Part shown: positions 11,201-34,631 of the stretch, one piece after another
Position numbering within the stretch: position 1 is the stretch's first letter
How the letters are laid out: every line of letters starts with the position of its first letter
Source of the DNA: Patellaria atrata CBS 101060
Taxonomy: Eukaryota
Length of the DNA stretch: 64,000 nt
Direction: 5' to 3'
NCBI GenBank assembly: GCA_010093705.1
Contig: MU006089.1
Coordinates: 1,242,455-1,306,454, forward strand
The notes under the pieces: model-generated
The model's input: only the letters and a program-made list of their open reading frames with translations
The model's database searches: none
Told to the model about the DNA's origin: nothing
Program-made: the position numbers and the translations under genes

Positions 11201-12695
11201 CTAAATCTCCCTCTTGCGTGTGAAGGGCCGAAGAGGGATCGTGAAGCCCATCGTTCTTAGAGTAATTGCCGGTTCTCAGACCACCACCATTGATGATCCT
11301 GTGTACAGTAATATGGATAGTCTAGCTTCTCCATGTATCGTTTTGAACCTCAGTTCGGAAAATAGGATTATTGATGGCAACAGGTGGAATTTCCCATAAG
11401 CCACCACGTTTTGACCCACGTCTGAGACAGTATGGCTTTCATACGACTCTCCCCAAACGAGAATGATAGATAGGATCGTGCTTCAAGCCTCTTTGCCCAA
11501 ACATGAAGCCACAGTTTCACGACTAGTTGTTCTGAAATGGGGAATATAGAAAGAAACTTCAGTGTAGCATCATGAGGTAATGTGAAAGTTTCTTGACTTT
11601 TTGGTCGGTAGCTGCACGGATTCCTGAACTATGGGGACATCCAAAGAAACAGACAAGTATCTGCCATCGAAAAACGTCAGAAACGTCCGATCAAAAACTG
11701 CTGATCAGTTCGAGAACTCGCATTCCTTCAAACTCGAGACGATCCGATAACGGATAACGGCATAAAGAGACGAGAGGAACCCCAGGAAGCAAACCCACGT
11801 CTCGAAAAGAAGAACGAATGCACGAACCTGAATACAAAGTCATCGCGAAGGAATCTCGCATCGAGGATCCCTGACCCCTCATTCGCTGCCCCTCGTTCCC
11901 GTTCCTGTTCCTGTAAATCCTGTACCTGAAGTGTTGAAATCGCCACCAAAGAAAGGCACCTTACAGTAGTTCATCAGCATAACAATCAATTCAATCATCT
12001 CGAACTGTCGATCTGGGCATATATCGATGAGTCTGCTGTTGTTGTGAAGATTTGCGAATAGTGGTCTGAAGAGAAAGCGTCCTCTGACTCGTGAAGTGCC
12101 CGTTTTGCTCACTTCGCCGGCTCCGAAAAAAAAGGCATTTCCCGCTCCCATAGTCGCCCCACTAGCGGGTGCTTGCACGTAGATTTTCGAACTCGAGCGG
12201 GAGGGAGAGGCCCGCTGCCGCCGCTTCGAAGGGTCATGATTCAGTTCGACTGACTCGATGGCGAAGTTGGGTTCTGGACGCTGGGCATCGCTATGAAAGT
12301 CGTGGGGTGATGAGAGGAATGGTAATGTTGGTAATTGCCATTTTTGTAGGTCTGCTATGGTTAGAATGTCGAAATTTTGTCATGTTTCTAGTTCCTGAGT
12401 GCGCTCCACATGGTGGAGGTACTCTCATGAATATTACATGGCATGGGTTGTAGGAGTGGGTGAGGTTCAAGAGAAGTCTGCAAGGCTACGATGAGTCGAC
12501 GACCATGAACGATGCGAGAACGAAAGTCAAGTTCAATCCTTATAGATGATTGTATTCTTCCTATTGTATCCACAAGAACAAGACTTTGATTTTACTCAAC
12601 GCCATAAAATCAACAGAGCCTCTCCACCATATTGTGATACAGTTCAAACGCCCAAATTCCTAATAAGCCGTTCCAAGCTGAAAGTAGCAAGCTGT

Positions 12696-13732
12696 CTATC
12701 GCACTTCCGTAACAGCAGAATTTTCATTTCTGATCCCCTTGACCTCCATAACCTCGGTGAACTCTGACGTTTCACCGAATTCCGTAACCGTGACCGTAAC
12801 GCTCTTTCCTTCCCTCCATTCGCTCTTCCTGTTCGTCACTATGTCTACACCGACGTGTCCATATCTCTCTTCCTCCATCTCAACCATGACGCCACTAGTC
12901 TCTACTACTTCTTCCTTGGCCTCGCCACTGGATGGAGCATCCATAAAAAGAATGAGACCACCTTTAATGATAGCATTTGCACCCAAAGGGTATCCTGACA
13001 AAGGATTCCCCTCGCCTTCAGTTGCTCTACCAGCGGGAGTCACAAAGCCTACGCTCTGGTAGAAGCCCTTAGACTCGGCATCACCACTCGCGACAACACT
13101 AGCACAGACTCCCTCCCTTCTTGCTTTGTCAATGCCCCAATTACACAGAAGTCTTCCCAGACCTCTTCGATGGAATCTGGGGTCAATGGCTAGAAGGTCG
13201 AGATAATAACCATTGTCTCTTCGGGTGCCGGTGGGGGACATAGATTGCCAGATGTGGGAGAAGAACGGGAAAGCGCGGTGGAATATCGTGAGAGCCTCTG
13301 GGCTATGAGCAGCGCGGTTCGGGAAGAAGTATGAAGACACAGCATTGCGAAGGATTTGAAGGGGTTTCATGAGGCGTCCTAACCATCAATTAGTATACAG
13401 TTGCCCAGGTAAGATACGGCAGGGGTAGGGGAAGACGTACTTGGGTCCCATCTCCAAAGTCCAGTGGCATTGGGACCTTGTTTTTCCCATTCTGCAACCC
13501 CCACAATGATTTCATTACCATTCTCGTCTTGCTCTGTAGCCACGATATAGGTGTGCGCCCAATCCCACCAGTTCTCCCGGTTACGTCTGTGCCAGAAAGC
13601 TACATAGTCCGCTGGATACTGCTGACGGCGGGGATGTATGAGATTAGAGAAGAGCTCGTCGTTTGCAAAACCTGCCGCACAACACGCTGAAATTGCGGGG
13701 AGATCTGAAGCTCTTGCTAGACGTATTGGCAT
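12696..13732 (-). CDS. GNAT-family acetyltransferase
   Basis: ATG 13732, intron 13440-13379. Contains MPIRLARASDL, EIIVGVAEW, the acetyl-CoA motif YLDLLAIDPRFHRRGLGRLL, and GFYQSVGF. Confidence 0.88.
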
Positions 13733-15053
13733 ATTGGAATTGAGCAATTGACCAGGAATAGAACGAGTACGTAAATTGAGAAATTGAGATTTCAGGAATG
13801 CTTGTATAGGGAATTCTGAATTCTCAGGAGGGAAATAGAATCGGATCAGTTTCAAACTTTCAATCACAGAAACAACACAATTGACACATGAAAAAAGCTG
13901 TAAAGTGCGATCACCAGTTTTAAGCGGTCAAGTCTTGTTCGAAGCTGCAGCAATAGATAACGCCACAACCACCATATTCTCGAGGTTACCCCTTCCATCT
14001 TGCGTTAAATGCAGAGATGAAGTCGGCAGAGTCGGGGCCCCGAAAGCCACCACGTACAGCCGGACATGCTAAGGAAAAGAGAAAAGCCTCGACGGTAGGG
14101 GAGTACAGTAGTGGCATGGTGCAACTTCCAGAGTCGCGAGGCATTCTGGGTCTGGGATGCAGAAACCATGGCCAGTTTGGGTCGTTAAATTTCTGAACAA
14201 AAGCATTATGGAGAGAGGTCGTCGGCTTCGGGCCTTCCACATGATGTTGGCGGATCGTACAGGACTTATGCAAGTCTAAGGTGCAACTCTTAATAATTAT
14301 GCATACTGTCTGCAAGTGGCACAGGTAGGCTGAAGTGTTGAGAAAGTAATCTGACTTTTAGTTCGGAATAGACGACCATATGGGAACATACGTAAAAGTA
14401 ATAGTTGGATTCATTAATCGATTGATTGATAGCATAATGCTTGCAGAACGTTATCGCTTACAAGATTAGGGAGAGAAAATACTGTTTTCGGGCTTTTCGT
14501 GAATCGGGGAGATAACATAGGGTGAAACCTCTCTCTAGGTATTCTCTTCATACTTGGGTTCTATGGATATTCAGAAACGCTTCTGACTATTGACTATAAT
14601 CAAGAGACTGTTCAAAAGTAGTATGGGGTTCTGATAATCTCGAATTCGAAAGACGATCTGCGGCGGCACCATAGATACTAGCTTGATGATTATCAGAGAC
14701 ACTGGGATACAAATTTGGTAATACAGTTGAGGAGACAGAAAATTCTAAGATATTGTTTAAGCGCCTAGCTTCATACGACTTGATTGGATCAAATGTTTAC
14801 TGTGTAGGGGGGATAGACTCTTCTCCCTCTTGTGCTGTTTGTGCCATTTGCATCGCCTAAGGGGCCCTTCTCGTCTCATTGACCTCACTGGCCGGACGAC
14901 ATCGTCACACGCAAGTCTGCTGTTGCCTGAAGCCTAGCCGTCACTCAGTCATAGTTCTACATGATGAAAGCTTCTGTTTCTTCTCTCATTACGTTTTTTT
15001 CTGAGCGTACGGTACTTGTACACCTGGGGACCAACATACTCCCTTGAATTGCA

Positions 15054-15875
15054 ATGGCAGACCCTACTCCCAAATCCCCGAGGGAATCGATAGCTGACTA
15101 TCCTGACTATCCAAACAAGAGGAAACATTTTATCCCTCTAGGTATGATACATCAAACTAGCTCATAGGTCTTCTCTAACTCATCAATAGAGAATAACCCT
15201 GAAGTTTTCTCTCATCTGATCCAATGCCTTGGGATTTCCCCCTCTCTCGGTTTTCACGACATCTACTCCATTGACGATCCCTCACTACTATCTTTCATAC
15301 CTCGTCCTGCTTACGCGCTGCTCTTTATCTGTCCCTCTGAAGTCTACTATCGCGCCCGTGCCAACGAACCTCAGTTCCCCGACTATAACGGATCCGGCTC
15401 CGATGAACCAGTAGTATGGTACAAGCAGACGATTGGTAACGCATGTGGTCTCATAGGCCTGTTACACGGTATCAGCAACGGAAAAGCCCGCAATTTCATC
15501 ACTCCTGGCTCAGATATAGATACTCTGATCAAAGATGCTATTTTGTTAAAGCCACAGCCGCGAGCAGATTTACTTTACAACTCGTCCACCCTTGAGAGTG
15601 CTCATGCATCTGCAGCTGTCAGGGGTGACACTGTAGCACCAGACGCCGAACCTTCTCCGGAATTGCATTATATCTGCTTCGCCAAAGGAGCAGACGGCCA
15701 TTTGTATGAATTGGAGGGTGGCTGGAACGGCCCGATCGACCGTGGACAGCTGGAGGAGCATGAGGATATGCTGAGTGAACGGGCACTGAGTTTGGGAGTC
15801 AAGTTGTTGATGGAGAAGGCAGGTGGTAATCTAAACTTTAGCTGTGTAGCGTTGGCTCCGAGTTTCGACTCATGA
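15054..15875 (+). CDS. Ubiquitin C-terminal hydrolase (peptidase C12, YUH1/UCH-L3-like)
   Basis: Exons 15054-15141 and 15190-15875. Motifs FIPLENNPEVF, KQTIGNACG (catalytic Cys), ELHYICF (His) and LYELEG (canonical LYELDG). Confidence 0.93.
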
Positions 15876-17849
15876 GCATCAAGATGCCCATATAGCCTCA
15901 AGTACTCATGCTAAGATGTATGGAGACATCTGAATAAGGTCAGGTTCTTACACTTCCGTTTCCGTTTCATTCGCATCTGAGAATGAGTTCATTGGTAAGT
16001 TCTATGTGAGAGTTTAAGGTATGTCGCATCGCCTAGTAGGTCTTAGGAAGGGCTCCATCCCTATCAGAGTCTTTATTCTCGTCCTCAGTTAGCAACACAA
16101 TAGTAATCAAAACTAATTTTGCTTACTCGGCCCTTCGTCTCATTTGTTGATATGCTTCGTCTCTGAATTCGAATATACTCCTTGTTATCACACAGTTCTT
16201 GACTCAATCGGATAATCACTTGTTCACCAGCAAGATTCATCGAATTTGCCCTATTTTCTTCCATTGCGTATCTTTAAACGTTATATCTGAGCAATGAACT
16301 CTTCCCATTGTGTTCGTCTTCAGTGTACCTCTAACTTCACTAAGGAATCATCTCATTTTTCGCTCGAGTCGGTGCTCCCCTCGATGTGTAGGTGTAAAAT
16401 CATCGAAAGACGTAAGATATAGAAGTAGAGGATAAAAGAACCGGTTGCGCGAAACAATTAGGAATGCGAGCGATAGTCCGACTGATGTTCGTATGGTGTA
16501 GAACGTTGGAGGAGGTAAAGCGAAAACGGCATCCAAATCGCTGCCTTGCTTGCAACGAGTATGGCAAGCGCTACTTCCGTATCGAAACATACTCAGGGTT
16601 GTAATGAGTGTATGGAACTCGTACTTTACCGCGGCCTTGACGTCTGGTAGGATACGTTCTAATGTTACATTGTGCCACCCCCCATTTCCTGTACGCTGTG
16701 CTTACCCACGAGTAGGCGCGATGCTCGGATACGTTTTCGACCTCCAATTCTGCGCCGGTCGCGTATAAAGCTGCTCGTATGCTACTCCTGCTGCTGCTGT
16801 AATCATATTGACCCGTTCTACCCATGAGTTGGATCCCACCGTGGACATACCCGATACTCGAACTTTCGGTTTGGGTATCGCAATCACCTATATAACGGCT
16901 TCGTAACTATATAGCTATCCAGATGGAATTCGATGGCTATTGCTTGTCCCTCTTCTCTGTTTTATTAGCTCTTAGTATTCTCTTCAACTTTCCTGTTCAA
17001 GGTAAACACGGATTGTGCAGAAACATTTCAGAATGATGGCCCTCTGCGCATCTCATAACATTTCAGCAGCACATTGGCCAGGTCATTGAGCTCTTTAAAT
17101 GGACTCAAGTTCATATTCACTTATCATCGCTCTCTTTGTTTGTGATCTTTACGTGTGGGGTGACGGTTAATACTTTCTTTTGTGGGTTGTAACAAAGTAG
17201 ATGCTTGTCGCGATATATGAATGTCTAGACCTCTTTGAACATGAGAAAGAGCGGCCACTCATCTCTAGCGGTTCGATTCCATTTTTTTCGCCTAAATACT
17301 CTATTGCAATATGTGGCCAGATTCCCAGGCCGCGTGAGTTGATTGTTCATCGCCAGTGCGGAGGTTCCCGAGTCCACTGTGATGGTCTCTTCTCTGAGAG
17401 CCTTGAGCCAACGGAAGGCACCTGGGACTGCGTTCATACGGAATTTATTGCGTCTAGAGGTTACTTTTTGGGGCAGGTCGTATCAACTTGTTAATTTCTA
17501 GGCACCGAAACACGAGAGAAAATCGGAAACGGGATCCAACAAGATCGGAGGCTCCGGAGCTCCTTCGAGAGTCGAGACACTTGATACCTGACTATTCTCT
17601 GATGTCTGCAGTCGGCCCGCTCGCTCTACTCCTAGATCCTCCCCGATGATAGGCCGAACACGTTATAGGGAATAGCTGACAATCGCCGCGGGGGGGGAGC
17701 TCCGGATCTATCCCGTATGTTGCTCCCGCCCTGCCCTCCGCCCTCGATTCCTTTCGCTCCCTAGCCGCAAGCCAGACCTTCTCTACCGCCACTTTTAATC
17801 CATCAGTCGAGTATACATTGGAGATTTTCTACGGTATTTCAAAATTACT

Positions 17850-20150
17850 CTTTTAAATCACCCTGTGGCTAGTATCCAGTTCTCTAAGTAAGTGAACCTT
17901 TCTTCCTACCGTGTTCCTTCCACATCCCCTCGGCCTACCAAGCGCCGATGACGTCCTACCAAGCTCCCAAAGGAATTATCACTTCAGGAAATCCTGCTCA
18001 TTGTTCCTCTTTACCTTATCCATACCCTTTTACTCCCGTCAGCCCGTGTGCTTACCGATGAAAATGCGCAGAAACTTACAGATATCTGATACTTTTACTA
18101 ATTAACCTTTGGAATTAGTATTAACCATTCTCGACTATTTCACCCTTCATCGTACCTCCCAACCCTCATTTTCTCTAAGCCATGCTGCGGGCAATTGGGG
18201 CATGTCGGCGCCCATGAAAATGTTCTCCGAAAGATCTTTCATAACATTCAGTGCGACTGTGGGATATCTCCCGGTATAATACTCTTTATACTCATCTCAA
18301 TTCGGCCCTTGTGGTTCCTATGACGTTCAACGAATCTATCCTCTACTCTTTAGGTCAGTCCCAAATTGCGGTTATACCCTCAGCGTCTTTCCTCCTTTGG
18401 TCTATAGAGGCCCAAAGAACACATTCAACAAAGGTTCAATAACTTACCTATTTCGACATCCTTTGACGGCCCGGTTCTAATCTATCTCATTCCCTACACC
18501 CAACCAGCGTTTTCTCCGGACGGTCTAGCCTCGAAGACCTAAGATACCAACCTACCATCAAGGTTACTATTTTAAGGAAATAGAAACGGCTATTTGGTAT
18601 TCAATATCCACTCTAGGTCTTATTCGGGTCGAACGGTTCGAAAATAATTTTAAACATCCTCTCTATCCTTCTTTCAGCTCATAGTCCCACCTATAATCTT
18701 TAGTCATTATTCTATCCATATTGACTATAGGAGAGATGTCTTACGTAGTCTAACAACATATATAATTCTCAATGACGGGATCACCCCTTCATAGCATGAA
18801 TTCCTACCTTTGCTCCTCCTTATCGCGTTACAGTGGTTCTTCTTCGGCCGGCGTGGCGCCTAGACGTTCCAAGAACTCCAGAATCTGGTCAAATCCCTAC
18901 GCCTTCTGATCATCTTGTAACGATCCCTTCATACGAATCCCTCCTCGCGACTCTTTCCCTCGGACCAGATAGTAGCGGAGATGTTCTACGACATACTAAA
19001 TCATTTCCCGTTTGGTGATCCTGCTATAGTGGTTCATCGGTTCCTGCATGTCACATGTATCCCCAGTACTCCCCTTCTATCGGTCAATGAATGTCGAAAG
19101 CCGTTCGTCAAAACGCGGTATTCTATTTACCCTTTTGGTAACTAATTATTTTAGGCAGTCAATCTCATGATGTCTCCACCACCTCGAGCACTTTCAATGG
19201 CAATGAAATTCGAGTTTTACCCCTTTCGCTCTCCGTGGTCCTAGATTATCGTTCTTAATGCGTGACTTATACCTTCACACGTCGCTCTCCTCCACTAATG
19301 TGGTTTTATATTCCTAACGGAATCTAACTTATTACACCCTTTACAACACTTTGTGGCGGTGTTTAGATATTCTTGGTGCGGTCGCATTACCTCTATATTT
19401 TCAATAACCAAGCGAACTCTGTTCCCAGAACAATAGTCCTCTCCACAAACCGTCTCACCTCCGTAAACCTTCTGGAGGCTCATGATAGAGTTTTGTGTTT
19501 TTGTCGCATCCGACCAATCCTCCTACTTCCCTACCAGTAAAGAATGAGAAAACTAGGTCACCCTCTATAGGTAGGATCGTTATGATATATTGCGGCTCTT
19601 AGTGTCCGCCCTTGCCTCGTAGTCCCGGCAACCACTTTCACCCCTCCGGCTAAGATACCTTAAAGACGTCCTACAAGAAAAGAATTTTTTTCAATCCATT
19701 ACTTGTAAAGGATACTCGGGTTTCTATTTAACTTATTTCGTTCGCAGGTCTCGATCTTACTCCTTTGACCCTACCCCTATCGACCCTACTCTTATCGACC
19801 CTACTCCTACTAAACCTTCTCCTCCTACCGAACCCTCTCCTATCGATTTTTCTCCTATCAAACGTCCTTATATCGACGGTGTCCAATCTACCCTACTCCT
19901 ATCGGCACCGCACCTCTCGATCCTACTCCTATCAACCCCTTTTATCAATAACTCCGCACTCAATAGTTAATTACCCCTATTCAGACAACGCCTCGTTTAT
20001 AAGACTCTTTAGTACTATTCTACCCCTCTATTATCCGAATACTAGGAATTCTAGTATTTACATTGAGTAATCCCGTGCGACCAAATTTCATAATCGCGTT
20101 GATTTTAAAAGAGGTTTTTACCAGCGGAAGTATTCTTAAGGTAAAACTGC
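17850..20150 (-). other. Decayed, RIP-like formerly coding or repeat sequence (boundaries approximate)
   Basis: Purine-rich minus strand with many TAG/TAA/TGA codons that read as Q/R if reverted C>T, and an apparent TpA excess. No family was recognised. Confidence 0.35.
19768..19940. repeat. Degenerate ~15-nt tandem repeat (GACCCTACTCCTATC-like)
   Basis: Repeated ctactcctatcga-like units. The minus strand reads cga tag gag tag gat, compatible with a mutated R-Q-E-Q-D coding repeat. Confidence 0.6.
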
Positions 20151-20159
20151 GTTATCTTA

Positions 20160-20439
20160 TGTCAAGGCTCAACCTCAGATGAGAGCTGAAAGGTATATTG
20201 CTGTATGTACATGAAGCTTAAACTTAAGGAAAGAAAGTAAAAGAGAGTATCAGAACAGCGTGAGCTGTTCTATTAAAGTACAACATGACTAAGCTACTGG
20301 ATCATGCATGGAGCTTAAACTTAAGGAAAGAATGTAAGAGAAAGTGCCAGAACAACGTAAGTTGTTCTATTTAAGTATAGCATAGCTAAGCCGCTGGATC
20401 ATCCAAGGCACTTATACCTATCGGGTCTAACCCGTGACA
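20160..20439. mobile_element. Solo LTR (280 bp) of an LTR retrotransposon
   Basis: Begins TGTCA (20160) and ends TGACA (20439). Flanked by an exact 5-bp TSD TCTTA (20155-20159, 20440-20444). Contains an internal ~97-bp direct repeat. Confidence 0.85.
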
Positions 20440-21654
20440 TCTTACCTATAAAATTAGAATATTAATTAATAATATTAAGCGCTACCTTTATATAATATAG
20501 GTTAATAGTAAGTTACAAACTATTCATCCTCGCGTTAGGCTACTATTGGTTAGGAAAACTGCTAAGGAGTGATAATAATGAACGGCGAGCATCGTCCTAG
20601 GTTATAACAGCAACTTCCATAACCTCCATTTCCCTATACTTTATCTCCACGCGACGTCTACCTATGACGACTCCGTAAGTGTAACATACAATCTCACTTG
20701 TGCAAATATCACCATTCGATCTCAGCTAATACAACCTCGAATGGAGTAAGTTTTAATCGGATCCAGCCGCCTTTAAGCAGAACTTCTACCAATCCCCTAC
20801 CGATTTCAGCGCATTCCACAATTTTATCCCCTTCTATAGTTCCCCTCGGGCTGTTATCGTAATGTGCTCTACAACGTGCATGCTCCTACAAATATAACAC
20901 AAAGCTACAATACTGGGGCAAAGGGCACGGAGGTGTGATTTTTGCGGGTTAGGGGTTTTTATTACGGGCTGGCACCGTGAGGATAAGAGGAAGCGCCGCC
21001 ATTAGTTCCTGTGAAATAATGTGAAAGACTTACTTGCGGGACAGAGAGAAAGGGGTGTTGCAAATGGTTTGTGTTGATGGCCGTGCAATTGATCGCAATC
21101 AGATAGGCGAGTAATCCTCAAACCAGAGCAAAGGATCCTGCACAGTGTAAAATCAAATTCGAGGTAGCTAAGGAAATAATCAATAGCTGATATGGGGAAA
21201 GCTGCGGAAACTGATCAATTTTGTAAGCAACGAGACGGATGGACTATTTTCAATCTCAGCAGAAAGTCGATCTCAAGTGGGCGAGTAATCTCAAGCCAGA
21301 GATAGGCTTACAAAGTAAGTATCCGAAACTCCTTGTCAATGCTCTATGAGCGCCTCCATGATAAACACCACTAGAGCAACATAATCCGTCAATCTGACCA
21401 ATAACTTTCCACTCATGATTGAAAGTCCCGTCGACGTGGTCAAGCAATCTTCCTACCCAACAGGCCATATAACGCAATCGACAAACACACCAAAGAAAAT
21501 GAACAGCCGCCTTGATAACTTTTGGGGAGTAGTTTGCATCCACCGACAGCAAGAATCGTAAAGACCCTAAACCACAATTAGTATCCATTCTATTAACGAC
21601 ATTCAGGGGAACATGCAATGACTGGTCTTCAACAATCGAATCCACCACCTGTTT

Positions 21655-22599
21655 CTAGTGAAAGTATGGTCGATAATTAGGATCCAATCCGTCGATGAAT
21701 TCTGAGGGCGCGTAGGGGAAAGGAAGCACATTTTCGTGCCATTCTGAAACCGAGGGAATCAGGTCGGCGAATTGCGGGAGGAAAGCGAACTGCAGCTGGC
21801 GGATGGGCATAGGGTGCAGGATTAGCGGCGTAGACTGCCGCACTGCGGGATCCTGAGAAATTTGCGTGTATTCCGCTGGAAAGATACTCAGCACTGAATA
21901 AGGAGGCGCGGGGCCTCGTCTATGCTGAGGGATGGGGTACGTGGGGACGGGTGCTGCTTTGAGAACCTCATTTAGAGCTGGGGGAGGGGGAAGCTGGTAT
22001 TGAGGTAAGAGAACGCTCAAGAGCATCATCCCGGTCTGTAAGGCCTGTTCGTCAGTGAAGCCTGAGACGCGAATATAACCAGTTTTTGAGATCTGGGCCG
22101 TCATTCGCGGTTCCGGGATACGGAAGACGAGCTGGTGGTTCAGTTCAGGCTCGTAGGTAATATGTTCACGGTATGGTGATTGGTTGCGTAGTCTCTCCAG
22201 GTGAAGGTTGAGATGGGCCTCACTCACAGCAGTCATATTGGAGACTCTGAAGTGTGTCAACTGTGTTCCGGGGCGGACCTTCTGGAGCATGGCAACGAAT
22301 TTATCGGCCGCTTTCTTGGCGTCATCGACGGTTCGCGTTCCTGTGATCAACATTGACATGCTCTTCCAGAAGATGATAGCGGAGGCGGCGGGGTTGCGAA
22401 CTCTGGCCGTTACGCTTGTTCCGCGGCGGGCACGATACTCAACATTGTCTCCGAATCGTGCCATGTCCTGTGGCGGTATGCAGACACTGTAGCCACAGTG
22501 GGCTTGAATGTTGACAATTTCCCACTCAAGGTCCAGAGGGACATTAGGCGGGTGTAGAGGGAAGTGAATGCGATTTCTGGGCACAGGTTGGGATGACAT
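21655..22599 (-). CDS. Divergent TATA-binding-protein-like factor (TBP paralogue), intronless, 314 aa with Pro-rich C-terminal extension
   Basis: Both TBP repeats are visible: IVNIQAH...NVEY...RVRNPAASAIIF...MLITGTRTVDDAKKAADKFVAMLQKV, and FRVSNMTA...LHLERL...YEPEL...LVFRIPEPRMTAQISKTGYIRVSG. First ATG at 22599. Confidence 0.88.
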   Translation of the reverse strand: MSSQPVPRNRIHFPLHPPNVPLDLEWEIVNIQAHCGYSVCIPPQDMARFGDNVEYRARRGTSVTARVRNPAASAIIFWKSMSMLITGTRTVDDAKKAADKFVAMLQKVRPGTQLTHFRVSNMTAVSEAHLNLHLERLRNQSPYREHITYEPELNHQLVFRIPEPRMTAQISKTGYIRVSGFTDEQALQTGMMLLSVLLPQYQLPPPPALNEVLKAAPVPTYPIPQHRRGPAPPYSVLSIFPAEYTQISQDPAVRQSTPLILHPMPIRQLQFAFLPQFADLIPSVSEWHENVLPFPYAPSEFIDGLDPNYRPYFH

Positions 22600-22745
22600 T
22601 ATGAGAGACAAGAAGTATGGTTGAACACAGCAGGGTGAATATGCGGTTACTCCACTGTAGGTTGAAAGTGTTGTAAATTTGGTAACTGTTGCAAGCACAA
22701 GATGGAGTGGGGTGTAAGAAAGATGGAGGGTTGGGGTTCTGAAGA

Positions 22746-22760
22746 CCTTTTTATACGCGT
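22746..22760 (-). promoter_or_regulatory. TATA box (TATAAAAAGG) abutting an ACGCGT (MCB-like) site upstream of the TBP-like gene
   Basis: Minus strand reads ACGCGTATAAAAAGG about 150 bp upstream of ATG 22599. Confidence 0.4.
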
Positions 22761-23686
22761 CGAGCCGACGACTCGATTCGCGAACGTGAATACAAATATT
22801 GACATTGTATCGGGCATGGACTGGCCCCTTAAGTTTACGTACAAATTTTACTTTCCACTACCTAACTCGTGAAGAAATGTTAAGTTGAGCCTTGGTAATT
22901 GATCAATAGCAAACGAGCTAGTTAAAAAAAAGTATGATAAACAAACAAAGGAATCCAACTCTCACGCTTTTCTAAATGTTCTGGGTCTCGTATTAGGATA
23001 GATGCTCAACTCCCACTCTCTCCCCAACAGAGAAATATGCTATATGCACAGTGATACTTTGAATATCCCTATGCTTGGTAAGAAGTTCCTCTCAGCATCT
23101 ATTGATGCAGGATCTGTGAAATTGAAAAGAGATAAGGGTTCCGAAATGTGCGGTTATTCTTCTCCATTTCACTCGCCAGATGCCCCTAGAACAGTATTGG
23201 AACCTTCTATTGGAGTCCTGTTGACCTGAAACCAGGAGGTCTGCACTTCTCTATCCGGGGGATTATAGTCTGGAAAAGTCTCTTGGATTTGACCAAGGTT
23301 TTCGCAGTTAAATTGCCTTATACAAACCCTATCCCCTTATCACGAGCGGAGTCCACTATGAAGTAAGACTTAAGTGAAAGAAAACCATTACTTTGATGAC
23401 TTACCCGCAAACACGGTATAATTCCGGGAAGTGGGCCACAATAGAATTGATGATCCAATATCCGGGATTCATACCAGCTCTACAGATTCAGCTGTTGGTT
23501 GTAGTTGTCTGTCTCTTACAACTGCTGTCGTTCTCCTCAATTCATACTACTAGAGCCAAACTTTCTCACCTTCTAGTGGTATATTCTACCTTTGCCTTGG
23601 AACCAGATCTGCAAGTGCTGACTTCTGACCACCCGTAGAACAACAACGAATCTTGCGACAAATTTCTATACTTCCTTACATACTAG

Positions 23687-24471
23687 TTGCAGACCTTCAT
23701 ACACAAGAGAAAAAGAAACGAGGAAGACAACGAGCAACACCATAAGAAGACTCATACGAAACTAGAGAACGAACCTGCTCCCTCGGTGTTGGAAGACGAC
23801 GATACCATCTCCATTCCCCCAATCCCCGATACTCAAATCATGAGCGCTCAGGTTAGAGACGCTCATATCGTCGACTACCACGTTCCTAATGGTCAATTAT
23901 ACACTGAGTAACGTGTTAACGGTACGGGGGCGGAAATCACCCTCCCCGCCGAGGGGAAGAGGGAGGATCTTATGAACTTTCGGGATCCCGGACTCTTTGC
24001 CGGTCACTTCAATTCAGAGGTTTGTCTAATAACGTTAGCCCGTCATGCTGCGGTCACTGCTGGGAGTACAGACGCTGAGATATCTCATATCTTGGATATG
24101 AAAGAGAAGGGTGAGAAGGTAAAATGTTTTCTCACGTACCATATCCTTACTAATCCTTTTCAGTTTCTTGGTTAGGAAAGAGGATTGTCAAGTGGAATGT
24201 TACAGGAGCATGGGGCAATATGAATATGAGATGAGCTTATGCTTGGTTGCGAGGGAAATTACATACAACTTGATCAAGTCATACAATGCAAAAGAATTTA
24301 CCAGAAAAATATCCTTCTAAAAACCACCATATGTCATTTAAGCTCCTTATGGAGCCAGATGTTGCGAGCGATGAAGTTATCGAAAATGTGATTGTTCAAA
24401 TAAGCATTGCCCCAGCCGTTACACCACACTTTAGCCGACAGGACTACAAATTTGATCTACCCATGGTATGA
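23687..24471 (+). pseudogene. Disrupted hypothetical gene
   Basis: ORFs 23687-23911 and 23972-24175 share a frame and are separated by a single TAA. An intron-like GTAAAA...CAG lies at ~24119-24163, with more stops downstream. NLS-like KRKR near the start. Confidence 0.35.
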
Positions 24472-25165
24472 TACGAACGACACAAATACGCTAGGACTAT
24501 CACATTAAATAGTGAGAACTTTAATGGAACAGTAATAAAATGATATTGTATACCGTCCCGCACGTAGAATCAGTACGATGAGGATTTCTCCTATCTTTTT
24601 AACTTTCAACACAATAGGGCCGTTTACTCCGTTTCTTTTAGGACATACACCAGTGTAGATTCAACCATATTTTTCAGATTGGGGGGAATATTTTTACCAG
24701 TGCAAAACGCATTCTCTTTACCTATAGACCAAACCACACTGGATGGGTTTTGTATTGTGATTTACTCCCACGTCTCGTAAGTACACTACTGGGGATATTT
24801 GCGCAGAGATAGCTTGAGGGACGAGTCTACAGTATCCACTGATGGTAAACGCAATCATAAGGTTGATACTTCTATGATCAGCGGTAAGTGATTGAGGGAA
24901 GGACGCCGGAAGCCCGGAGGGAAGATCCTTTAAGTGCCTTGTTGAATATCGATATCGAGAGGGATTACATAGAAAAGCGCAACTCATCAAAATAGTTCTA
25001 TAAGGAACATTTCAATGGAGTTATATGATTAAAAAATAAGATAAAATAAAACTTACCATGCTATGCGTCTGAAGAGTCGTCAATAGGACCCGATTCTGGT
25101 TTCTAGTGATTGGTAGAGTAACATTACAACAAAATAGAAAACGAGATCAAAAACGGCAAAATAAT

Positions 25166-25281
25166 TGGACGGCGAGGGACTCGAACCTTAATTTCCGCCG
25201 ATACACTATGGTACAGGACAGTATATTACACAGTCCAGCTGTATAGTACACGGTGGCGTCTTACCATTAGACTAACCGCCC
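25166..25281 (-). tRNA. Atypical intron-containing tRNA or tRNA pseudogene (Ala-type acceptor stem, apparent GTA anticodon)
   Basis: GGGCGGT-TA-GTCT-AATGGTA-AGAC-G-CCACC-GT-GTA-C-[~45-nt intron 25245-25201]-C-GGCGG-AAAT-TAAGG-TTCGAGT-CCCTC-GCCGTCC-A, followed by T-runs. A and B boxes are present. The anticodon and T stems have mismatches. Confidence 0.75.
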
Positions 25282-25768
25282 CGATTGTTGCAGACCTAGC
25301 ACCTCTAAAGCGCTTTTACTCGCTTTCCCTGCATCGGAAACTGGTTTGCAAGTTTAGCATTTTGTTCAAGCGAACAGGAGACTTAACGAATTTTCAAGGG
25401 GGTTGGGAAAGGGGGTGTGGTTGAGATGTGTGGGTGGGTAGCTTCGGCGAGCTCCCGAATTTGCATGTGCAGAAAACAAACGGCACCGAAATCCTCACCT
25501 CACCACTCCGTGACTTAACAATATAACAAAAACCACACTCAATAGATTTGTTTCAACCACTTTTAGAGAATGAAGCGACGCAATCTTTTTTATCGAAATC
25601 GGAATAGAGACTGAGTGGCAAGCGATCAATGACAGACCGATGAAAGGAATAGAACCTACATTATTAGGACCACAGTTTCGACCGCAGCGAAGATCGCCCT
25701 CCTTACTCTTTTGGACCAGTCCAAGATTCAGCGATTTGATCATCCCCACGTGAACAATGTAACGCGAT

Positions 25769-25841
25769 CCCAGAACGCAATCCCAGAACGCAACTCCTAG
25801 AACGCACTCCGATAACGTACTCCCAGAACGCAATCCTCGAA
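25769..25841. repeat. ~13-nt tandem repeat (TCCCAGAACGCAA-like, about 5 copies)
   Basis: tcccagaacgcaa tcccagaacgcaac tcctagaacgcac tccgataacgtac tcccagaacgcaa. Confidence 0.8.
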
Positions 25842-26097
25842 CACCATCATCGACACGATAACACAGATCTCTCGCGACTATGGCCGACAGGAGGATGAAA
25901 CATATCTAACAGACCAGAATAGCTACTCTGTCAGTATCCCCAAGGGCGAAACCTCGACTACTTCTATCTCCCGGACACAGGCATAGCTCATCCCCTGCGT
26001 TACATCTATGGAAGATCAGGAGGGTATAGAGCGCGCAATATTTCCTACACACGCGTAAAGAATTAGCCATATCCGGATCCGGTGATTCACTCTATAT

Positions 26098-27084
26098 CTC
26101 GAGCAGCAATTAAAAAACTACAGAAGAACTGCCTTGAAGGAGGACAAGAATTGGTCACACTGATAGACAATCAGTATAATATCCTGACAGCAGAATGGGG
26201 CATGAATGTCAATTTCAGCTGGGTCCCAAGCCACAAAGGCATCTAGGGCAATGAGCTGGCAGATAAACCGGCCGAACTCGGACTAGAAAGGAAATCTGTA
26301 CAAGCATCATCCACCTCACTTAGCCACCTGAAACGTATGAGTAGAGAAAAGATAATAATAGATTGGAAAAAACAATGGGAAACAAACCCTAGAAGACAGG
26401 GAAGCATTACACCCAAGTGTGTAGAGCAGCAATCTCATTTTCAACCAAATCATCAATCCCAAAATATCCAAAGAGGACTTAAGCAGCATTCTTTCAGCTG
26501 AAGAGTGGAGCAGGCTTCTCCAAGTCATACTCCAAGAGAATTGGAAAGGATACTGAAGGGAAATGTTTTGGAGACTGTAGGTTTATCCAAAGCCCAAGAC
26601 ACCTGATTGTTTACTGCAAACATTACTCTAAGGAACGTAAAATCATGGAGAAGCAGCTAAAGTCAAGAATGACATTAACAAGACTCTTTTGTACAAAGAA
26701 GGGGAAAGAAATACTCTTCCAATACTTACACAATACACAAATATCAACAGCTAAATGGCTGCTACATAAAAGAGAAATCAATGAAGAAGAACAAGAAACA
26801 TAAAAATGATAGCATACAGGGGAAAAACTAGTTCGATATATAATGCAGGGAATTGAAGAGCAAAGGATACAGTGGAGTTAGTTCAGTTTTCTAATGCTTG
26901 GATTAGACTGCAAAGTTTGGACAACTGGGGAGATTCACTCCTCGGACACTCTCACTAGACATATTATTGCCCTAGGATAGGGATTTATGTAGATAGAAGA
27001 GTAGCACCATAGCCTAAGAGCTGCATGCGCAGTATTGTAGATAATGCAATACAATGGATTAAAAAAAACCAAAAAAAAAAAAAA
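26098..27084 (+). mobile_element. Degenerate 3' part of a non-LTR retrotransposon (Tad/I-type LINE): RNase H C-half, CCHC knuckle, 3' UTR, poly(A)
   Basis: Translates as VNFSWVPSHKGI*GNELAD (RNase H), AAFFQLKSG, CFGDCRFIQSPRHLIVYC (CCHC) and LHNTQISTAKWLLH, with stops and a frameshift. A-tail at 27061-27084. The 5' boundary is uncertain and may extend to ~25480. Confidence 0.88.
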
Positions 27085-29499
27085 GAAAGGAGTGACTTGG
27101 GAAGGCCGTCACTGACATCTGCACTAGGTCAAATCTCAAGGGTTCCTAAATTCATAGCTTCTTCATCCGGAACATGGGACGTACCTGAATATAGCATAGA
27201 CAGGAGCCGAAACCGTGGACGAGGGAAGTAGGACGGACCTCTGCCTTCTGAGAAGAGACAACACACCAGTGTGACCCATACCGCTCCCAACGTTGAGGGA
27301 TAAACGGAATAAAGACAACTTGCGAGATGCGCTATGGGAGAGAGGCGTAGGAGTCCAGAATAGCAAGATGAAGGGTGAAGGAGAGACAATCTAAAGTCTC
27401 AAGAGAGGAGTGCAGGCAGGAACTACTTGAACTATTACCTCCGGACTTACATTGAGTCAGACGACAAACCAATACTCCTCCGATTTACGGATCGTATCAT
27501 GCGGAGATATGGTAGGCAATTTTGGGAACAGGATGAAGGGTATTTAGACCAATGAGGATATAGTCAACTGCAAAAAGGTCGGGACGCTTGATCAGACGAC
27601 ATAGGTCAGGTTTGTTGCCAAACACCCGTGATGTGTATTGAGTCATCCAAAGTCGTTCGCAGCCCATTTCCTACTCTTATTCCATTTCCATATATCTATG
27701 CTCTTATTACACTTCCGTGATACCAAACACACATTTCCCCTAGAGAATGAGAATTATGGTGAAACAGCCTAGGAGTCCACATCATCGCCCATGCCAACGA
27801 CCAGGACCGTTGAACTAGCGAGGGCTATGGAAAGAACTGGTAAAGTAATTCCGTGGTTTGAACTTCAAGTCTCAGCACTTACAGTGCGCGTTACTGGAAA
27901 CTATGCTGTTATGTTATCGCGGAATATCCTCCTGACAGTTCTACATCGACGGTTACTGAAAGAATGGGACTCCAAATAAGTTTGCTCCCAGATGGCAAAC
28001 TAAGTGAGATGTTCCAAAGTTCGGGACCCTTTCACCAGAAAAGGCACACACGTTCGATTTGTATTTTGGATATTCCTTCAAACCTCACGTGACTCTCCAC
28101 ACCTTGACACAACACTTCGACATCTCCAGTCTGAGTTAGAGATTGAGCAGTGATCACCGGCTTTACGGTACGATATAGTTCTTAAAGCGTTTTTATCTCA
28201 AATATTGTAGGTCCTGACAAGAAGATAGGTTATTAACCAAACTTTGATACGTCCCGCACAAATATTCACGTCGATAAACATGTTTTCGACATACCCAGCT
28301 GAAGGTCGTAAGCGGAGAATCCGTCAAGTAACAACAGAACCAGTCCACGTCGGAGAGATCATCGAGCAGTTCTTCCAAAGTCTCAGGAACTTGAGGAGAA
28401 TGAGGCCGAATAGGAGACATTCTTCTCTACTAAAGCTAGTAGTCACAAATCCTACTCCAGAACGTACGCCTATCACGAAGATCTTCAAGTGTACAAAATT
28501 TACGACTACGACGGAAATCAGCCATATAATGGTTGAATCCATCGCAACAAGCAAAGACCTAGAGGGGATTGGTCACCCCACAATGTTGGTAAGTGTTATG
28601 TGTGAGCAAGAAAGGTACGCTTCCCTAATATGTTTCCTCTGTTTTGGTTATGATTTTGATGACCGGGTCTAACTATACGCTATGCTAGATACTCTGAACC
28701 ACGAGCTACTATGACGAAGACACAGGCCCAGAAGAGTCTGCGAAAGATACTAGAGGCTGATAAGGTTCGTCGTGGAAGCTGTATCTCAAAGCTTCGAATC
28801 TGCTTTGGAAGGGATGGTAGATCGGGAGCGTAGAGTTGGAGCATATAGTATAGAATGCCCTCTATTTTGGGTATAATAAGAACATTTTGGCTCGAAGTCC
28901 TCCCAGTATAATAGCTCAGCCTGCGTATTGACCTGTAAGACCAACAAAAATAATTTCTATGGTTTGGCCCATTGAGGACGGCTACATGCTCTGATGCTGT
29001 AATAGTTTATAGCTCATCTAGTAATTGCGCCATAGGGTCAAAAACATACGACAGTACTCGATCAAATGATGAAAAGCGGTAAGGGAGACCTGAGACATTT
29101 CTGACTGAGGGTTATTTTGACTTTCGACGACAATCCGAAGTCAAACAACGAGATTATGAAATGATGAAACGGAAAGGAATCCATAAGAGATGTTATGAAC
29201 CTGGATAGGGTTGTTACTTGACTATCGAAGTTTGTTCTCCAGGTCACGGAGTAAAGGTTTCTGACTGGAGATGAAACCGCCGACTCTTAGACCGACCAAA
29301 AAAGCAAACCAAAGATTGGAACCTTAGTGACTCTATGGTGAGATAGGATCAATATAAGAAGATAGGAAAAGGATCACAGAGAGTCCAGGAAATCGACTAA
29401 ATGAAATAAATTGGTTGACTTGGGGAGCGAGACTATGGACGATTGCTTCAATTTCAAGCAACTAGAATAAAAAGAGAAAAGAGAAGATAAAGAAGCAGA

Positions 29500-29880
29500 G
29501 TTTGAGAGACGCTGGACGACCAATTAAAGATATGTAGAATAAGAAGGCGAGGCGCTACAAGAGATGACAAATGGATTGGAATAAATGGAAAGCCGGGTGC
29601 GTATCTCGAAAAGGGACAAGGACTGAAGCAGGACATCAACGCTGTACCACGAACTCGAAATTCTTTCCTGATATATTGTGATGACGAATCAATCGTTATT
29701 CGAAGAGTTCCCTGCCCAGCAATTGAATGGAAGACATACAGCGCAAGGATAAGTGAGCAGGGTGAGTCGTACGGAAAGCCTTTTGGTGGGAATTGGAGCA
29801 AGAATCTATCGGTACCTGATTATTAGCTGTCAGGGTCTCCTAAAGATCGGAAGAAAACAAGACTATTACTCACTTGGTAA
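29500..29880 (+). pseudogene. Possible decayed HMG-box gene
   Basis: VPRTRNSFLIYCDDESIVIRRVPCPAIEWKTYSARISEQ resembles HMG helices 1-2. An intron-like GTGAGT...CTGAT..TAG follows (29762-29826), then a frameshifted SEE-QDYYSL resembling helix 3. Stops upstream. Confidence 0.35.
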
Positions 29881-31591
29881 TTAACTCTCCCCCGTATAGC
29901 CATCGGCGTGGTGACATCTGTTCGCCCATACCAAGATGGTCGGGGTTGAGGTGGTCGGGCGGGAACTGAAGATCTGGAGATTCGGTGATTAGTCATCAAA
30001 ACACACCCTCACAACAAACGAAGCGACTGGAGCCGCTACCTGCTTCTCACTTTAGACGAAGCTGGTATAGAACACATTAGATGAAGTAGCAACCTGGGGA
30101 TGCCTGAGGTTAAGAAGCACATATTCATCAGGAGGAAGCACAGATTTGATCACTACCGTATCAAAAGCAATCATAAAATTCACTTGTCTCTCTCTCTGGA
30201 TCTAGTGGAGAACGGACACGTTAGAACTACCCGGAGGGACTAACCGTAAGACCTCTTCTGCACGTAACACTTGCGAATTATAGAAACAAGAAACCCTAGC
30301 AAGATAGTATCCAAGCAGTTATGGTTTCCAACTTATATACAGAAATGCCAAGTTATATGACTGATTGATAAGGATAAGATGGATGTCGCACTGACAAGCG
30401 CCCAGCCTCTCCCCGGTCCCCCTTGATCCACTTGATGCTCCGCTGTGTTGCATACCTTACCTTAGTTCTAGTTCGAAAATCCTTCATCTCCTAAGAGAAA
30501 ACTTAATCGCGACTTCATCTCTTCACCTTGATTGACCTTTGATCTCGACCATCCAATTCAACGCAGCCTCATTGTGCATTATCATCTGCTGGTCGCAAGC
30601 TTGGGAAGTTTGCTTGGAGCTCAGCTCGGCTCGAGCCACAAGCCAGAAAGAAAGTGGACCAGTCTAGTATGCTGTAGAAGTTTCACAGCATCAAAACATC
30701 CTTGAATCCCAATCCTGAGTCGTTTTCCGGCTGCATCCAAGATTTCATGAAAGAACTTTCTGTATTCATATGAATATCACAGGCCATTAGTGGGTCACGG
30801 CGGTGACTCTTGTGACGTGTAGCAAGCGTAGCTGAGACGAAGCGTGATAGAGCAAGGGAGCCTACCTCACTTTGGTTGGGTACGTTGCCAGATCGGACTA
30901 TTAGGGACAAAGAATAGAATACCTTCTAACTTACTTTATCTTGGTTCTACACAGCCCCCACTATCGCCAAGCGCTCGTCTTGAGCATTATGGAGGGGCAT
31001 ACCTGAATGCGAGAGAAGAGAGGCAGCATTACTAGACTTATCTATCTTCAAGAGCCGACCGGAGTGGCTCTGATTTCCCAAGCTGAACTGGATGTGCGAG
31101 GTAGAAAATGTATGAAACTGAAGACCATGGTAAGGTATGATTAGCAATGTTTACATTGCAACATCCTTCCAACGTTTCACTGAAGCACTCAAAAACGGAA
31201 GGAGAGATCTCTAGTAGATGACGAGAGCTCCTTCCACACGTATAACAACAAATAGTTATCTCTGCTTTTAGACCACATGGAAGTTCCACAAAAATGACTT
31301 TGGAATTCGGCCAAATGATGACCCGCCTTGGACAATAAAGAAAGCACGAATTTCTCATAACGCCAGATGGCTGGGGAGCTGATGATGCCTCTTTCCACAT
31401 CTTCTCGCAGTTCGCAGTTTCGGATACCTAGCTCATCCTCTCTCAGCCTACTGTAGGTACACTCACCTATCGGGACACTTGACCAGGGTCGTCTTTGTCG
31501 GGAGCTACATGCAGTATTAATGTGGCTTGTTTAGCTGATGTACTGTTTTTAGGCAGTCACAACCCAGTTGCTTTCCGAATCAACCTCTTGG

Positions 31592-31599
31592 TATATAAA
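31592..31599 (+). promoter_or_regulatory. Putative TATA box of the S8 protease gene
   Basis: TATATAAA about 120 bp upstream of ATG 31719. Confidence 0.45.
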
Positions 31600-31718
31600 T
31601 GTCACGATGCCCCCGATTTTATACCTGATATAATACATCCAACAGTTGCTTTCCATTTCTTCGAACCTAGTTAACTATCTCTGCACACTCCTAGTAACCT
31701 ACCACTCTTTACTTAATC

Positions 31719-33956
31719 ATGGCTTCTCCTATTACCATCAACGGAAATTCTCTTAATCCCAGTGCCCCCGGTATCCGTGCCTTTGGACTGGAGTCTGATG
31801 ATGCTGCTTCTTCCAACTATATTCTGATTCAAACCGATGGGCCCTTAAGGAAGGCTCAGAAAGAAGATCTCAAAGCTAAAGATGTGGCCATCCACGAGTA
31901 CGTTAGTGAGAATACGTATCTATGTGGCTACAAACCCGAAGACCTCGCTCCCATTCGCGAGCTACCTTTTGTCAAGTACGCAAACGTATACCAACAGACA
32001 TTTGTCGTACAACCAGATCTACGGACCCAACAACTAAGTCCAACTGAATCACTCCTCAATCAAGCTACTACACATTCACGTACTCTACAGACAGTCGATG
32101 TAATCTTTCACCATGACATTGATCCAGACTCGTGCGAAATCAGGAGCGAGCTTGCAACAGCTGCCCGTGCTGATCCAGATGATATCACTCTCACCTCGAA
32201 GAAAGCTCAGCTTTCTGTACAAGAACAGTATCTCGACGATATTGCTGCCATCGACGGTGTATGCTTTATCAAAGCGGTACATGCTAAAAAGCTTCGCAAT
32301 AACATCGCCCGTGGAATTCTCAACGCCGATGTTATCATCAATGACACTCCTTATAAGGGAGAGGGCCAGGTAGTATGTGTTGGCGACACTGGTTTCGATA
32401 CTGGAGACACCGAGAACCCACATCCTGCTTTCACCGGTAGAGTGAAGAAGCTCTATGCACTTGGCAGACCCAACAAGTCCGATGATCCGGATGGGCATGG
32501 AACTCATGTCTGCGGTTCTGTGCTTGGAGATGGAATTTCTAAAACCATGGGCGTGAGTCCCGAATTCAAGATCGAAGCTCCTGCCTCAAAGGCCACCCTT
32601 GTGGTGCAGAGTCTTTTGGACAGAAATAACGGATTGGGTGGTATTCCTAATGATCTTGAAGGTACGTATACCGAAACTTCTTCATCCTGATTGATATATT
32701 CTATGTAAATTTTATTTCTTTTTTTTTTGTTGGTATACTATGCATCGGTTACACTCCCTTTATTGCACAACTTACTGTGTGATTCAAAGGTTCGTACACT
32801 TCAAGTATACTAAGTGTGAATAGATCTCTTCCGTACGCCCTATGAAAAAGATGGGGCTCGTATTCATACCAACTCTTGGGGATCTGGCGGTAACAGTCAA
32901 CTCCCATACGATGGCTCAAGCATTGACATCGATAAATTTGTCTACGAACACCCAGATATGGTCATTCTCTTCGCGGCTGGCAACGATGGCAAAGATGCTG
33001 ACAACAACGGGATTATCGACCGCGCCCAAATTGGCTCAGAAGCAGCATCCAAGAATTGCATCACTGTTGGTGCTACTGAGAATGACCGCCCTGACATCGC
33101 TACGACATATGGCCAATTTGGCTATTCAGCACAGCCACTTTTCTCTGACAAGATCAGCACATCATCTGAAGGTATGGCTGCTTTCAGTTCTCGTGGTCCA
33201 ACCAAAGAGAAACGCATCAAACCAGACGTTGTTGCTCCTGGCACTGGTATCTTAAGCACCCGTTCCCGCCGGACGGGCGAAGCATCTCCTATATATGGCG
33301 TTAGCAAAGACAAAGAGTGGATGTTTCTTGCCGGGACCAGCATGGCCACACCGCTCGTCGCAGGATGTTGTGCCGTAATCCGTGAGACCCTCGTAAAGAA
33401 TGGAACAGAGAAACCTTCTGCTGCTCTGATCAAAGCACTCTTGATCAACGGTGCTGATGATGTTGAGGGCCAATATGTCCCTTCAGAAGCAGGTCCATCC
33501 CCAAACATCAACTCTGGCTTCGGCCTCGTCAACGTCGCTGGTAGCGTCATTCTCCCCGGTGACGCCAACGGTGGCTTTGGTGACTCTGAAAAGCCACTCG
33601 ACGACGAAGAGGAGTTCGAATTCACCATCGACGTCCCCAGTTCAGACTCTACCACGCAAATCAACGGCACCAGCACCTCGCCAAAAGCTACACCTACCAA
33701 CAAGACTCTTAAAGTCACGTTGGTCTGGTCAGATCCTCCAGCTGCGGCTCTCCAAAGCGATCTTGATCTCACTGTTATTGCAGGTGGTAAAGAGAGGCAT
33801 GGGAATATGGGCACAAAGAAGACCTTTGATCGTATCAACAATGTTGAGAGGGTCTTTTGGGTTAATGTACCAGCTGGTGAGGTTAAGGTAAAGGTGAGCG
33901 CGTATCGTATCACTACCACACCTCAGCACTTTGCTTGGGCTTGGAAACTTTATTAG
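31719..33956 (+). CDS. Subtilisin-like S8 serine protease (KP-43-like), no obvious signal peptide
   Basis: Exons 31719-32661 and 32824-33956. Catalytic Asp VCVGDTGFD, His DGHGTHVCGSVLG, oxyanion FAAGNDG and Ser AGTSMATP. Also ARIHTNSWG and a C-terminal beta-barrel (LKVTLVWSDPP...NNVERV). Confidence 0.95.
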
Positions 33957-34252
33957 GGTGGGATACACTAGGGACTATGTGAAATTGTCTGCCCTGGGCT
34001 GTAGGGTAGGAATTCATGTCATAATGTTGGAGTTCCAACGGACGGTCTTTTGCCTCTAGGTACTGTTGTGTGGTTAATTTCCTATAGTCAGAATATAATC
34101 AAACCTCAATTCCTTATCCTACTCCGCACATATACGGTGAATGCTTCGATCTTGCCATTCCTCACCTTAACGAACTAATGTCTGTACTATGAACCTATTA
34201 TAAGGCTTGTCTAAACCATCCATCTTCGTAAAAAAAAAAAGACGCACAACCC

Positions 34253-34631
34253 TCAACTTATCATTCCTCCCACTCTCTCATGTCCTAATCCGTACAGAAC
34301 TCCCAAATTCCCACACTCCACGAACACGAACTCAAAACCCCACCCACTCCACCACAACATGCCACCCCTCCCTCCTCGCCCGTCGAACCCAACCCGCGAG
34401 AAACAGAAGGATCAAGATCTCCAAAGTCCAGATCACGGCGATCATGACCCCGGCGATCATGCAGGCGGCCAAAACGACCACCATTTGGACTTGGGGGTCC
34501 TCCTCTGCTGGTTCTGTGTTGGGTTAGCGGGATTTTGATTTGGGGACTGGGGGTGGGATTGGAATTTTGGGGGGGCAGAGGGAGGGGAAAGACTTACGGG
34601 GGTATCGGGGCAAGCGGAGTATGAATACCAT
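34253..34631 (-). CDS. Small (~98 aa) hydrophobic membrane protein, two exons, absent from the ORF track
   Basis: AAAAATG at 34631. Intron GTAAGT 34597 to GCTAAC..CAG 34514. Product MVFILRLPRYPQPAEEDPQVQMVVVLAACMIAGVMIAVIWTLEILILLFLAGWVRRARRE... Confidence 0.45.

Follow-up and report, generated by a model that had tools for sequence, protein, structure and literature searches.

The TBP-like gene and its surroundings

The window analysed here, i.e. the whole 64-kb stretch of DNA from the ascomycete Patellaria atrata CBS 101060, contains a single TBP-like locus as judged by tblastn within the window. This locus is an ORF on the minus strand (21655-22599), whose putative product is denoted P0001 below. 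It runs without interruption through 314 codons from the ATG at 22597-22599 to the TAG at 21655-21657; the frame contains no in-frame ATG further upstream and is open as far as 22857, which amounts to 400 codons from stop to stop. Given that this one ORF spans the whole TBP core, the description of the gene as intronless in the original prediction fits, and the reading frame is intact as claimed there. The Pfam TBP profile (PF00352) recognises two tandem TBP repeats in P0001, which is the criterion for the family, with a score of 85 bits (cut-off 22.9; E 3.2e-24) distributed over two stretches, the best of which covers residues 117-191. A phmmer search against the PDB chain sequences yielded 35 distinct matches at E <= 0.001, all of them TBPs or TBP fusions, with the TBP of Chaetomium thermophilum (7z7n_D) at the top (1.8e-16) and yeast TBP chains at 5e-16. 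The features of the locus, together with the two genes that bound the gene-poor stretch around it, are the following.

15168-15875: ubiquitin C-terminal hydrolase gene (Peptidase_C12), bounds the gene-poor stretch
21655-22599, minus strand: ORF of the putative TBP paralogue P0001, 314 codons plus TAG, uninterrupted
21658-21996, minus strand: Pro-rich C-terminal tail, residues 202-314, predicted to be disordered from about residue 230
21997-22254, minus strand: C-terminal TBP repeat, residues 116-201, 22% identical to the canonical consensus
22255-22524, minus strand: N-terminal TBP repeat, residues 26-115, 31% identical to the canonical consensus, pLDDT >90
22748-22755, minus strand: candidate core promoter, TATAAAAA octamer at -156 to -149 relative to the ATG, with a C/T-rich stretch after it
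31698-33956, plus strand: subtilase gene (Peptidase_S8), bounds the gene-poor stretch

No other Pfam-recognisable gene shares the roughly 15.6 kb (16000-31600) of lower-GC DNA (0.43-0.45) in which the ORF lies. The original prediction had described its neighbours as decayed; this was not borne out, given that the 86 stop-to-stop ORFs of at least 55 aa examined in 16000-31600 gave no Pfam match above the curated cut-off and the flanks look non-coding. The only listing in this stretch, an amfpi-1 match at 19298-19522 on the minus strand, was rejected because it falls below its cut-off (17.6 bits where 25 are required; E 0.006). In the only two public runs found to contain the stretch (one sample from one study), depth over the ORF is about 327, compared with 334 and 310 in its flanks, and over 14500-34400 both runs behave as DNA, with contigs that cross intergenic DNA without joints. 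No RNA run is listed for the locus, a blank that speaks neither for nor against its expression. Because the depth of the ORF equals that of the flanks, the locus is real single-copy DNA.

Multi-copy repeats at 20210-20403 and at 26100-27100 bracket a unique segment of 5.7 kb that contains the gene. The former consists of two tandem copies of a 97-base unit that are 83% alike; its word depth exceeds that of single-copy DNA about 80-fold (27156 compared with 334 in the first run), short-read contigs break there, and the unit looks like a high-copy dispersed repeat or a satellite. The latter is a multi-copy stretch with a depth of 1478-13605 against about 330; in both runs, the contigs there are short and loose ends are numerous. 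Short tandem arrays are also present in the gene-poor flanks, at 19758-19938 (period 15) and 25761-25842 (period 13). The Peptidase_S8 match of the bounding subtilase gene falls in two separate frames (31698-32690 and 32820-33956), for which an intron is the simplest reading. Further along the plus strand, four consecutive long frames (256, 287, 242 and 548 aa) occupy 41571-47066 without a Pfam match at E 0.001, and these could represent exons of an unknown gene or of several such genes.

Several features of the ORF bear on whether it codes for a protein. The frame of 400 codons compares with a maximum of 259 codons in 300 shuffles of the surrounding 5.7 kb, and its GC (0.54) and GC3 (0.59) stand out from both flanks (0.43), as they do in neighbouring genes (GC 0.49-0.52 and GC3 0.48-0.58). 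The RIP indices (TpA/ApT of 0.59 and (CpA+TpG)/(ApC+GpT) of 1.26) are not RIP-like and leave no RIP footprint, so that RIP is not the cause of the fast divergence of this gene. Furthermore, P0001 retains 22 of the 37 columns with a conservation of at least 85% among 95 canonical-type TBP cores, compared with 24 of the 136 other columns (Fisher p 1.5e-6), i.e. the conserved columns are preferentially retained and the retention pattern thus tracks the constraints of the TBP family. Frame length, GC, RIP indices and column retention, all of them indirect evidence, favour a protein-coding gene that is maintained by selection.

The same features have to be weighed against the possibility that the ORF is a duplicate without function or on its way to decay, such as a processed retrocopy derived from the resident TBP gene; its frame would still be open, but it would be silent or inactive. 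Such an origin could account for the lack of introns and is compatible with a gene that is alone in some 15.6 kb without another recognisable gene and adjoins multi-copy repeats; it also draws on the loss of key DNA-contact residues, the long branch and the lack of an orthologue in the searched collections, all described below. However, neutral sequence that has diverged by about 70% from every TBP should carry stops or frameshifts, against which stands the open frame of 400 codons, far from the 259 of the shuffled sequences. The gene-like contrast in GC and GC3 with the flanks, the threefold more frequent retention of family-conserved columns and the lack of a RIP signature that might explain the fast divergence argue in the same direction, and we consider a dying duplicate unlikely.

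Upstream of the ATG, the TATAAAAA octamer and the C/T-rich stretch that follows it are a possible core promoter. The octamer has 2 matches in the 64-kb window, where chance alone would give 2.5, and its pattern was picked after the sequence had been inspected, so that it amounts to a promoter hint only.

Predicted saddle fold and DNA face

The AlphaFold2 model of P0001 has pLDDT values above 90 from residue 21 to about residue 210 and consists of two lobes with the expected order of strands and helices. In Foldseek comparisons, this model matches the human TBP core 1cdw_A with a TM score of 0.95, an rmsd of 1.3 A and E 4.6e-18; across human, plant and yeast TBP cores, the target-normalised TM scores are 0.93-0.95 and the rmsd 1.2-1.4 A. 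The alignment that served as input comprised P0001 and 109 of the best 150 of 1010 phmmer matches, and because these were TBPs, the model is biased towards the TBP fold; the assignment of P0001 to the TBP family by sequence evidence stands independently of the model. Thus, a two-repeat saddle is confidently predicted. The original prediction had named failure to obtain this saddle as a result that would count against the gene, and the fold was obtained; together with the Pfam and PDB matches, it agrees with the classification of the gene as a highly divergent member of the TBP family.

To compare P0001 with canonical TBP (yeast Spt15, 7z7n_D and 1cdw), positions were numbered by the printed phmmer alignment with yeast TBP (chain residue + 60), with which a MAFFT alignment of 145 TBP cores agrees. 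The assignment of yeast positions to the DNA face, or to the TFIIB stirrup and other partner contacts, follows the TBP structural literature, for the DNA contacts that on yeast and Arabidopsis co-crystals. Canonical TBP sequences carry two pairs of DNA-kinking Phe (F99/F116 and F190/F207), and of these four residues P0001 retains one: G60 corresponds to F99, F77 to F116, N154 to F190 and S171 to F207. The loss of three of the four Phe with retention of F116, as originally claimed, is thus seen in both alignments, and the motif strings given for it match. The resulting pattern, G-F-N-S, occurs in the query alone among the 145 cores, of which 95 have F-F-F-F and 20, all TRF2-like, have x-W-H-F. 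The losses are lopsided, with the C lobe lacking both of its kinking Phe and the N lobe lacking one. In canonical TBP, it is the Phe pair of the C lobe that introduces the kink at the first base step of the TATA box (PMC3142196).

Beyond these Phe residues, the hydrophobic and basic concave DNA face of canonical TBP is extensively altered. In the C-terminal repeat of P0001, the changes comprise P191H, L205Q, K211Y, V213R, T215S and K218T in addition to F190N, G192Q and F207S, so that the underside of this lobe is polar. Retained in this repeat are N121, R160 (yeast R196) and the stirrup Y149-E150-P151-E152-L153, which corresponds to yeast Y185-E186-P187-E188-L189. In the N-terminal repeat, V71 is replaced by Q32 and K120 by S, in addition to the change of F99 to G60, whereas R98, R105, F116 and T124 of yeast are retained (R59, R66, F77 and T86 in P0001), with I in place of L114 and L in place of V122. 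This repeat also contains one additional residue, W78, which directly follows F77, and its turn reads S-M-S where S-G-K is nearly invariant. In helix H2, K133, K138 and K145 are retained, whereas R137 is replaced by D and R141 by A. Altogether, the N lobe is 31% and the C lobe 22% identical to the consensus of the 95 canonical-type cores, compared with averages of 45% and 36% for the 20 TRF2-like rows, so that P0001 has diverged further from the canonical consensus than animal TRF2. The architecture differs from canonical TBP as well: the N-terminal region of P0001 has 25 residues, and a Pro-rich C-terminal tail of 113 residues replaces the N-terminal extension.

Two other sequence criteria of canonical TBP are found in P0001, namely the pair of central Asn and the acidic C-terminal stirrup (yeast E186, E188 and L189), in line with the original description. 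N30 and N121 correspond to yeast N69 and N159, the central Asn pair of canonical, TATA-binding TBP. The stirrup is the surface that canonical TBP uses for TFIIB-type factors, and its conservation suggests that the contact with TFIIB is retained in P0001. Since three of the four kinking Phe and much of the DNA face of the C lobe are lost, P0001 is most likely unable to bend a TATA box and, as far as can be judged from these residues, most likely cannot form the canonical bent TATA complex. The Phe pairs of TBP co-evolve with NC2 and Mot1, and TBP variants that bind TATA less stably seem not to need NC2 and Mot1 (PMC6672047).

Relatives and origin

An exhaustive phmmer search of 1.84 billion representative sequences yielded 1010 matches at E <= 0.001, of which 142 reach 1e-10. 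At E 1e-30, no orthologue of P0001 was found among the 1.84 billion representatives, the sole passing match being P0001 itself. Among the best 150 of the 1010 matches, the other 149 are 24-36% identical to P0001 and include canonical TBPs, TRF2-like proteins and other divergent TBPs. A word-indexed search of 5.8 billion clusters gave 829 candidates, among which only the public model of the same gene (P0002, see below) was recovered. No relative was found in the viral contigs scanned. A metagenome locus (L001) was rejected as a spurious match because the similarity is confined to 34 residues of the low-complexity tail and the GC-rich contig contains no TBP ORF. Searches of the full-text literature, mostly outside subscription journals and without supplements, retrieved no account of a fungal TBP paralogue of this kind.

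Three further candidates were examined and discarded. P0040, which has G and N at the positions of F99 and F190, is an arthropod-type TRF2-like protein by its C-terminal motif and profile score. P0004 and P0020 share a 'GTR.V.DA' stretch and were considered as fungal paralogues of one family; their identity to a canonical core is 45-47%, compared with 27-31% to P0001, and the Atlas cluster nearest to P0004 consists of diatom TBPs.

As a sampling control, we used the neighbouring 5'-nucleotidase ORF (49015-50802), for which the next best proteins are at most 72% identical, with Rhinocladiella the best. By this control, Patellaria atrata CBS 101060 is without a close sequenced relative in the database, and the missing orthologues of P0001 are accordingly weak evidence on the age of the gene. 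Within these limits, P0001 is an orphan, probably a lineage-restricted one. The lack of orthologues is one of the points that fit a dying duplicate, and another is that P0001 has the longest terminal branch of the 69 cores in the tree described next (2.97 changes per column).

Neither a quick tree of 145 cores nor a careful mixture-model tree of 69 cores gives P0001 a supported position. The latter combines 5 canonical rows with 64 of the 90 representatives taken at 62% identity, the other 76 cores being left out; no starred clade in it includes P0001, and the bootstrap had not settled. In the free tree, P0001 is placed weakly beside the divergent rows P0013, P0014, P0021 and P0044. Two constrained topologies were compared with the free search by the AU test: (i) a clade of P0001 with 7 TRF2-like rows, for which lnL is 9.4 higher (p-AU 0.60), and (ii) a clade of P0001 with 4 canonical rows of plant and fungal type, for which lnL is 10.5 higher (p-AU 0.64). 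Neither is rejected, and given that the two clades fit equally well, the tree does not discriminate between these origins. The original prediction that the factor had evolved independently is therefore not upheld by the tree.

Profile comparison gives a clearer contrast. P0001 scores 94.2 bits on a profile of 20 TRF2-like cores and 120.8 bits on a profile of 95 canonical-type cores (a difference of -26.6), whereas held-out TRF2-like rows (P0040, P0092 and P0136) prefer the TRF2 profile by +54, +43 and +72 bits, respectively. Because the canonical profile suits P0001 better than the TRF2 profile does, P0001 is not filed as a member of TRF2/TLF. The likeness to TRF2 asserted in the original prediction thus stands as an analogy, with 20 TRF2-like rows showing x-W-H-F at the four Phe positions, and falls as a statement of membership; 'TRF2-like' may describe how P0001 works rather than its descent.

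The resemblances and differences between P0001 and TLF/TRF2/TBPL1 can be specified further. Both are TBP-fold proteins that have lost kinking Phe, both carry the YEPEL stirrup, and P0001 shares nine TRF2-consensus states (G50, V53, R56, A94, L105, R118, T167, T173 and Q188). In contrast, the TRF2-like rows with x-W-H-F retain F207, whereas P0001 with G-F-N-S retains F116, and TRF2 is described as confined to animals, whereas P0001 comes from an ascomycete. TLF/TRF2, which yeast lacks, does not bind TATA, as the original prediction had stated for the metazoan factor, but interacts with TFIIA and TFIIB; it can activate TATA-less promoters or act negatively by sequestering TFIIA (all from PMC3142196). 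Among TBP-related factors of this type, it is the only characterised precedent. The divergent TBP paralogues of protists and viruses, including giant viruses, resemble P0001 in being lineage-specific, fast-evolving TBP folds with altered DNA faces, but no specific sequence relationship to it was found, and among the matches listed none is more than 36% identical to P0001.

These data bear on whether P0001 descends from a duplicate of the fungal TBP, came in by horizontal transfer, or survives from an ancient paralogue lineage of TRF2/TLF-like, protist-like or viral type. The fit of the TRF2-like clade, the nine shared consensus states and the weak placement beside four divergent rows in the free tree would agree with a foreign or relic origin, and so would the Atlas clusters nearest to P0001 by language-model features, which are clusters of viral and oomycete TBPs (scores of 0.92-0.93). 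On the other side, the canonical clade is an equally good constraint, the profile preference runs opposite to that of the held-out TRF2-like rows, and the composition of the gene matches that of host genes. Moreover, the scanned viral contigs gave no relative, the one metagenome match is spurious, and the matches listed include no donor candidate above 36% identity. We regard an origin of this kind as distinctly unlikely.

A putative TATA-independent factor

The textbook picture of ascomycetes, including the yeast models, is that of one universal TBP serving all three polymerases (PMC3142196 and PMC9934661), and TATA-independent TBP-related factors have been described for animals (PMC3142196). 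Across the ascomycetes compared in PMC9934661, TBP is a conserved single-copy family, which agrees with the premise of the original prediction that fungi typically possess a single conserved TBP. Between yeast and mammals, canonical TBP cores share about 80% identity (PMC3142196). Both observations speak against the notion that P0001 is the only TBP of this organism and acts as its general factor despite the substitutions: its repeats are 22-31% identical to the canonical consensus. This notion appears hardly tenable.

On balance, we lean towards the reading that P0001 is the product of a genuine coding gene, a lineage-restricted, putative TBP paralogue that works as a TATA-independent TBP-related factor. 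P0001 combines the predicted two-repeat saddle and the retained acidic C-terminal stirrup with a dismantled DNA-kinking apparatus, in which three Phe are gone and several hydrophobic or basic residues on the underside of the C lobe have given way to Q, S, R, Y and T. Under this reading, the protein could be recruited to a subset of promoters by other proteins and engage TFIIB/Brf-type partners there; alternatively, it might compete with TBP for these partners. Its role may accordingly be either to nucleate initiation at certain promoters or to titrate away the partners of TBP.

A more far-reaching version of this scenario is that P0001 represents the ascomycete's own TRF2-like factor, which evolved independently of that in animals, does not bend TATA, keeps the TFIIB-type stirrup and serves a private, TATA-independent or stage-specific programme, for example in sexual development or dormancy. 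We regard this version as improbable. If true, it would make P0001 the first factor of its kind in a phylum for which a strictly single-copy TBP is assumed.

A working fungal example of a TATA-independent TBP-related factor would show that abandonment of the TATA box by such factors arises repeatedly. If it works, P0001 would also be a natural experiment on which surfaces of TBP are dispensable while the fold and the TFIIB stirrup remain, and would hint that filamentous fungi select promoters at a further level, hidden so far; if it is silent, it is a curiosity of one genome only. The gene model is already present in a public proteome, and what is new is the unexpected phylum and the distinct pattern of losses.

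This public model is evidently P0002, a protein of 180 residues that is identical to residues 1-180 of P0001. Residues 181-314 (21655-22059) comprise 134 codons past the end of P0002, with coding-like GC and no splice donor seen there. The public model may be truncated, and because it ends at residue 180, the true 3' end of the gene is uncertain. The tail itself has a GC of 0.55 and a GC3 of 0.56, with pLDDT values of 42-55 over residues 231-314. A stretch of the tail ('SEWHENVL...SEFID') was considered as a counterpart of the C-terminal motif of six TRF2-like matches, of the arthropod type, and was rejected, given that between 104 and 450 of 500 shuffles scored at least as high in local alignment. 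No relatives of the tail were detected by phmmer among the 1.84 billion representatives or by local alignment to TRF2 tails. This Pro-rich segment may carry motifs for interaction with partners.
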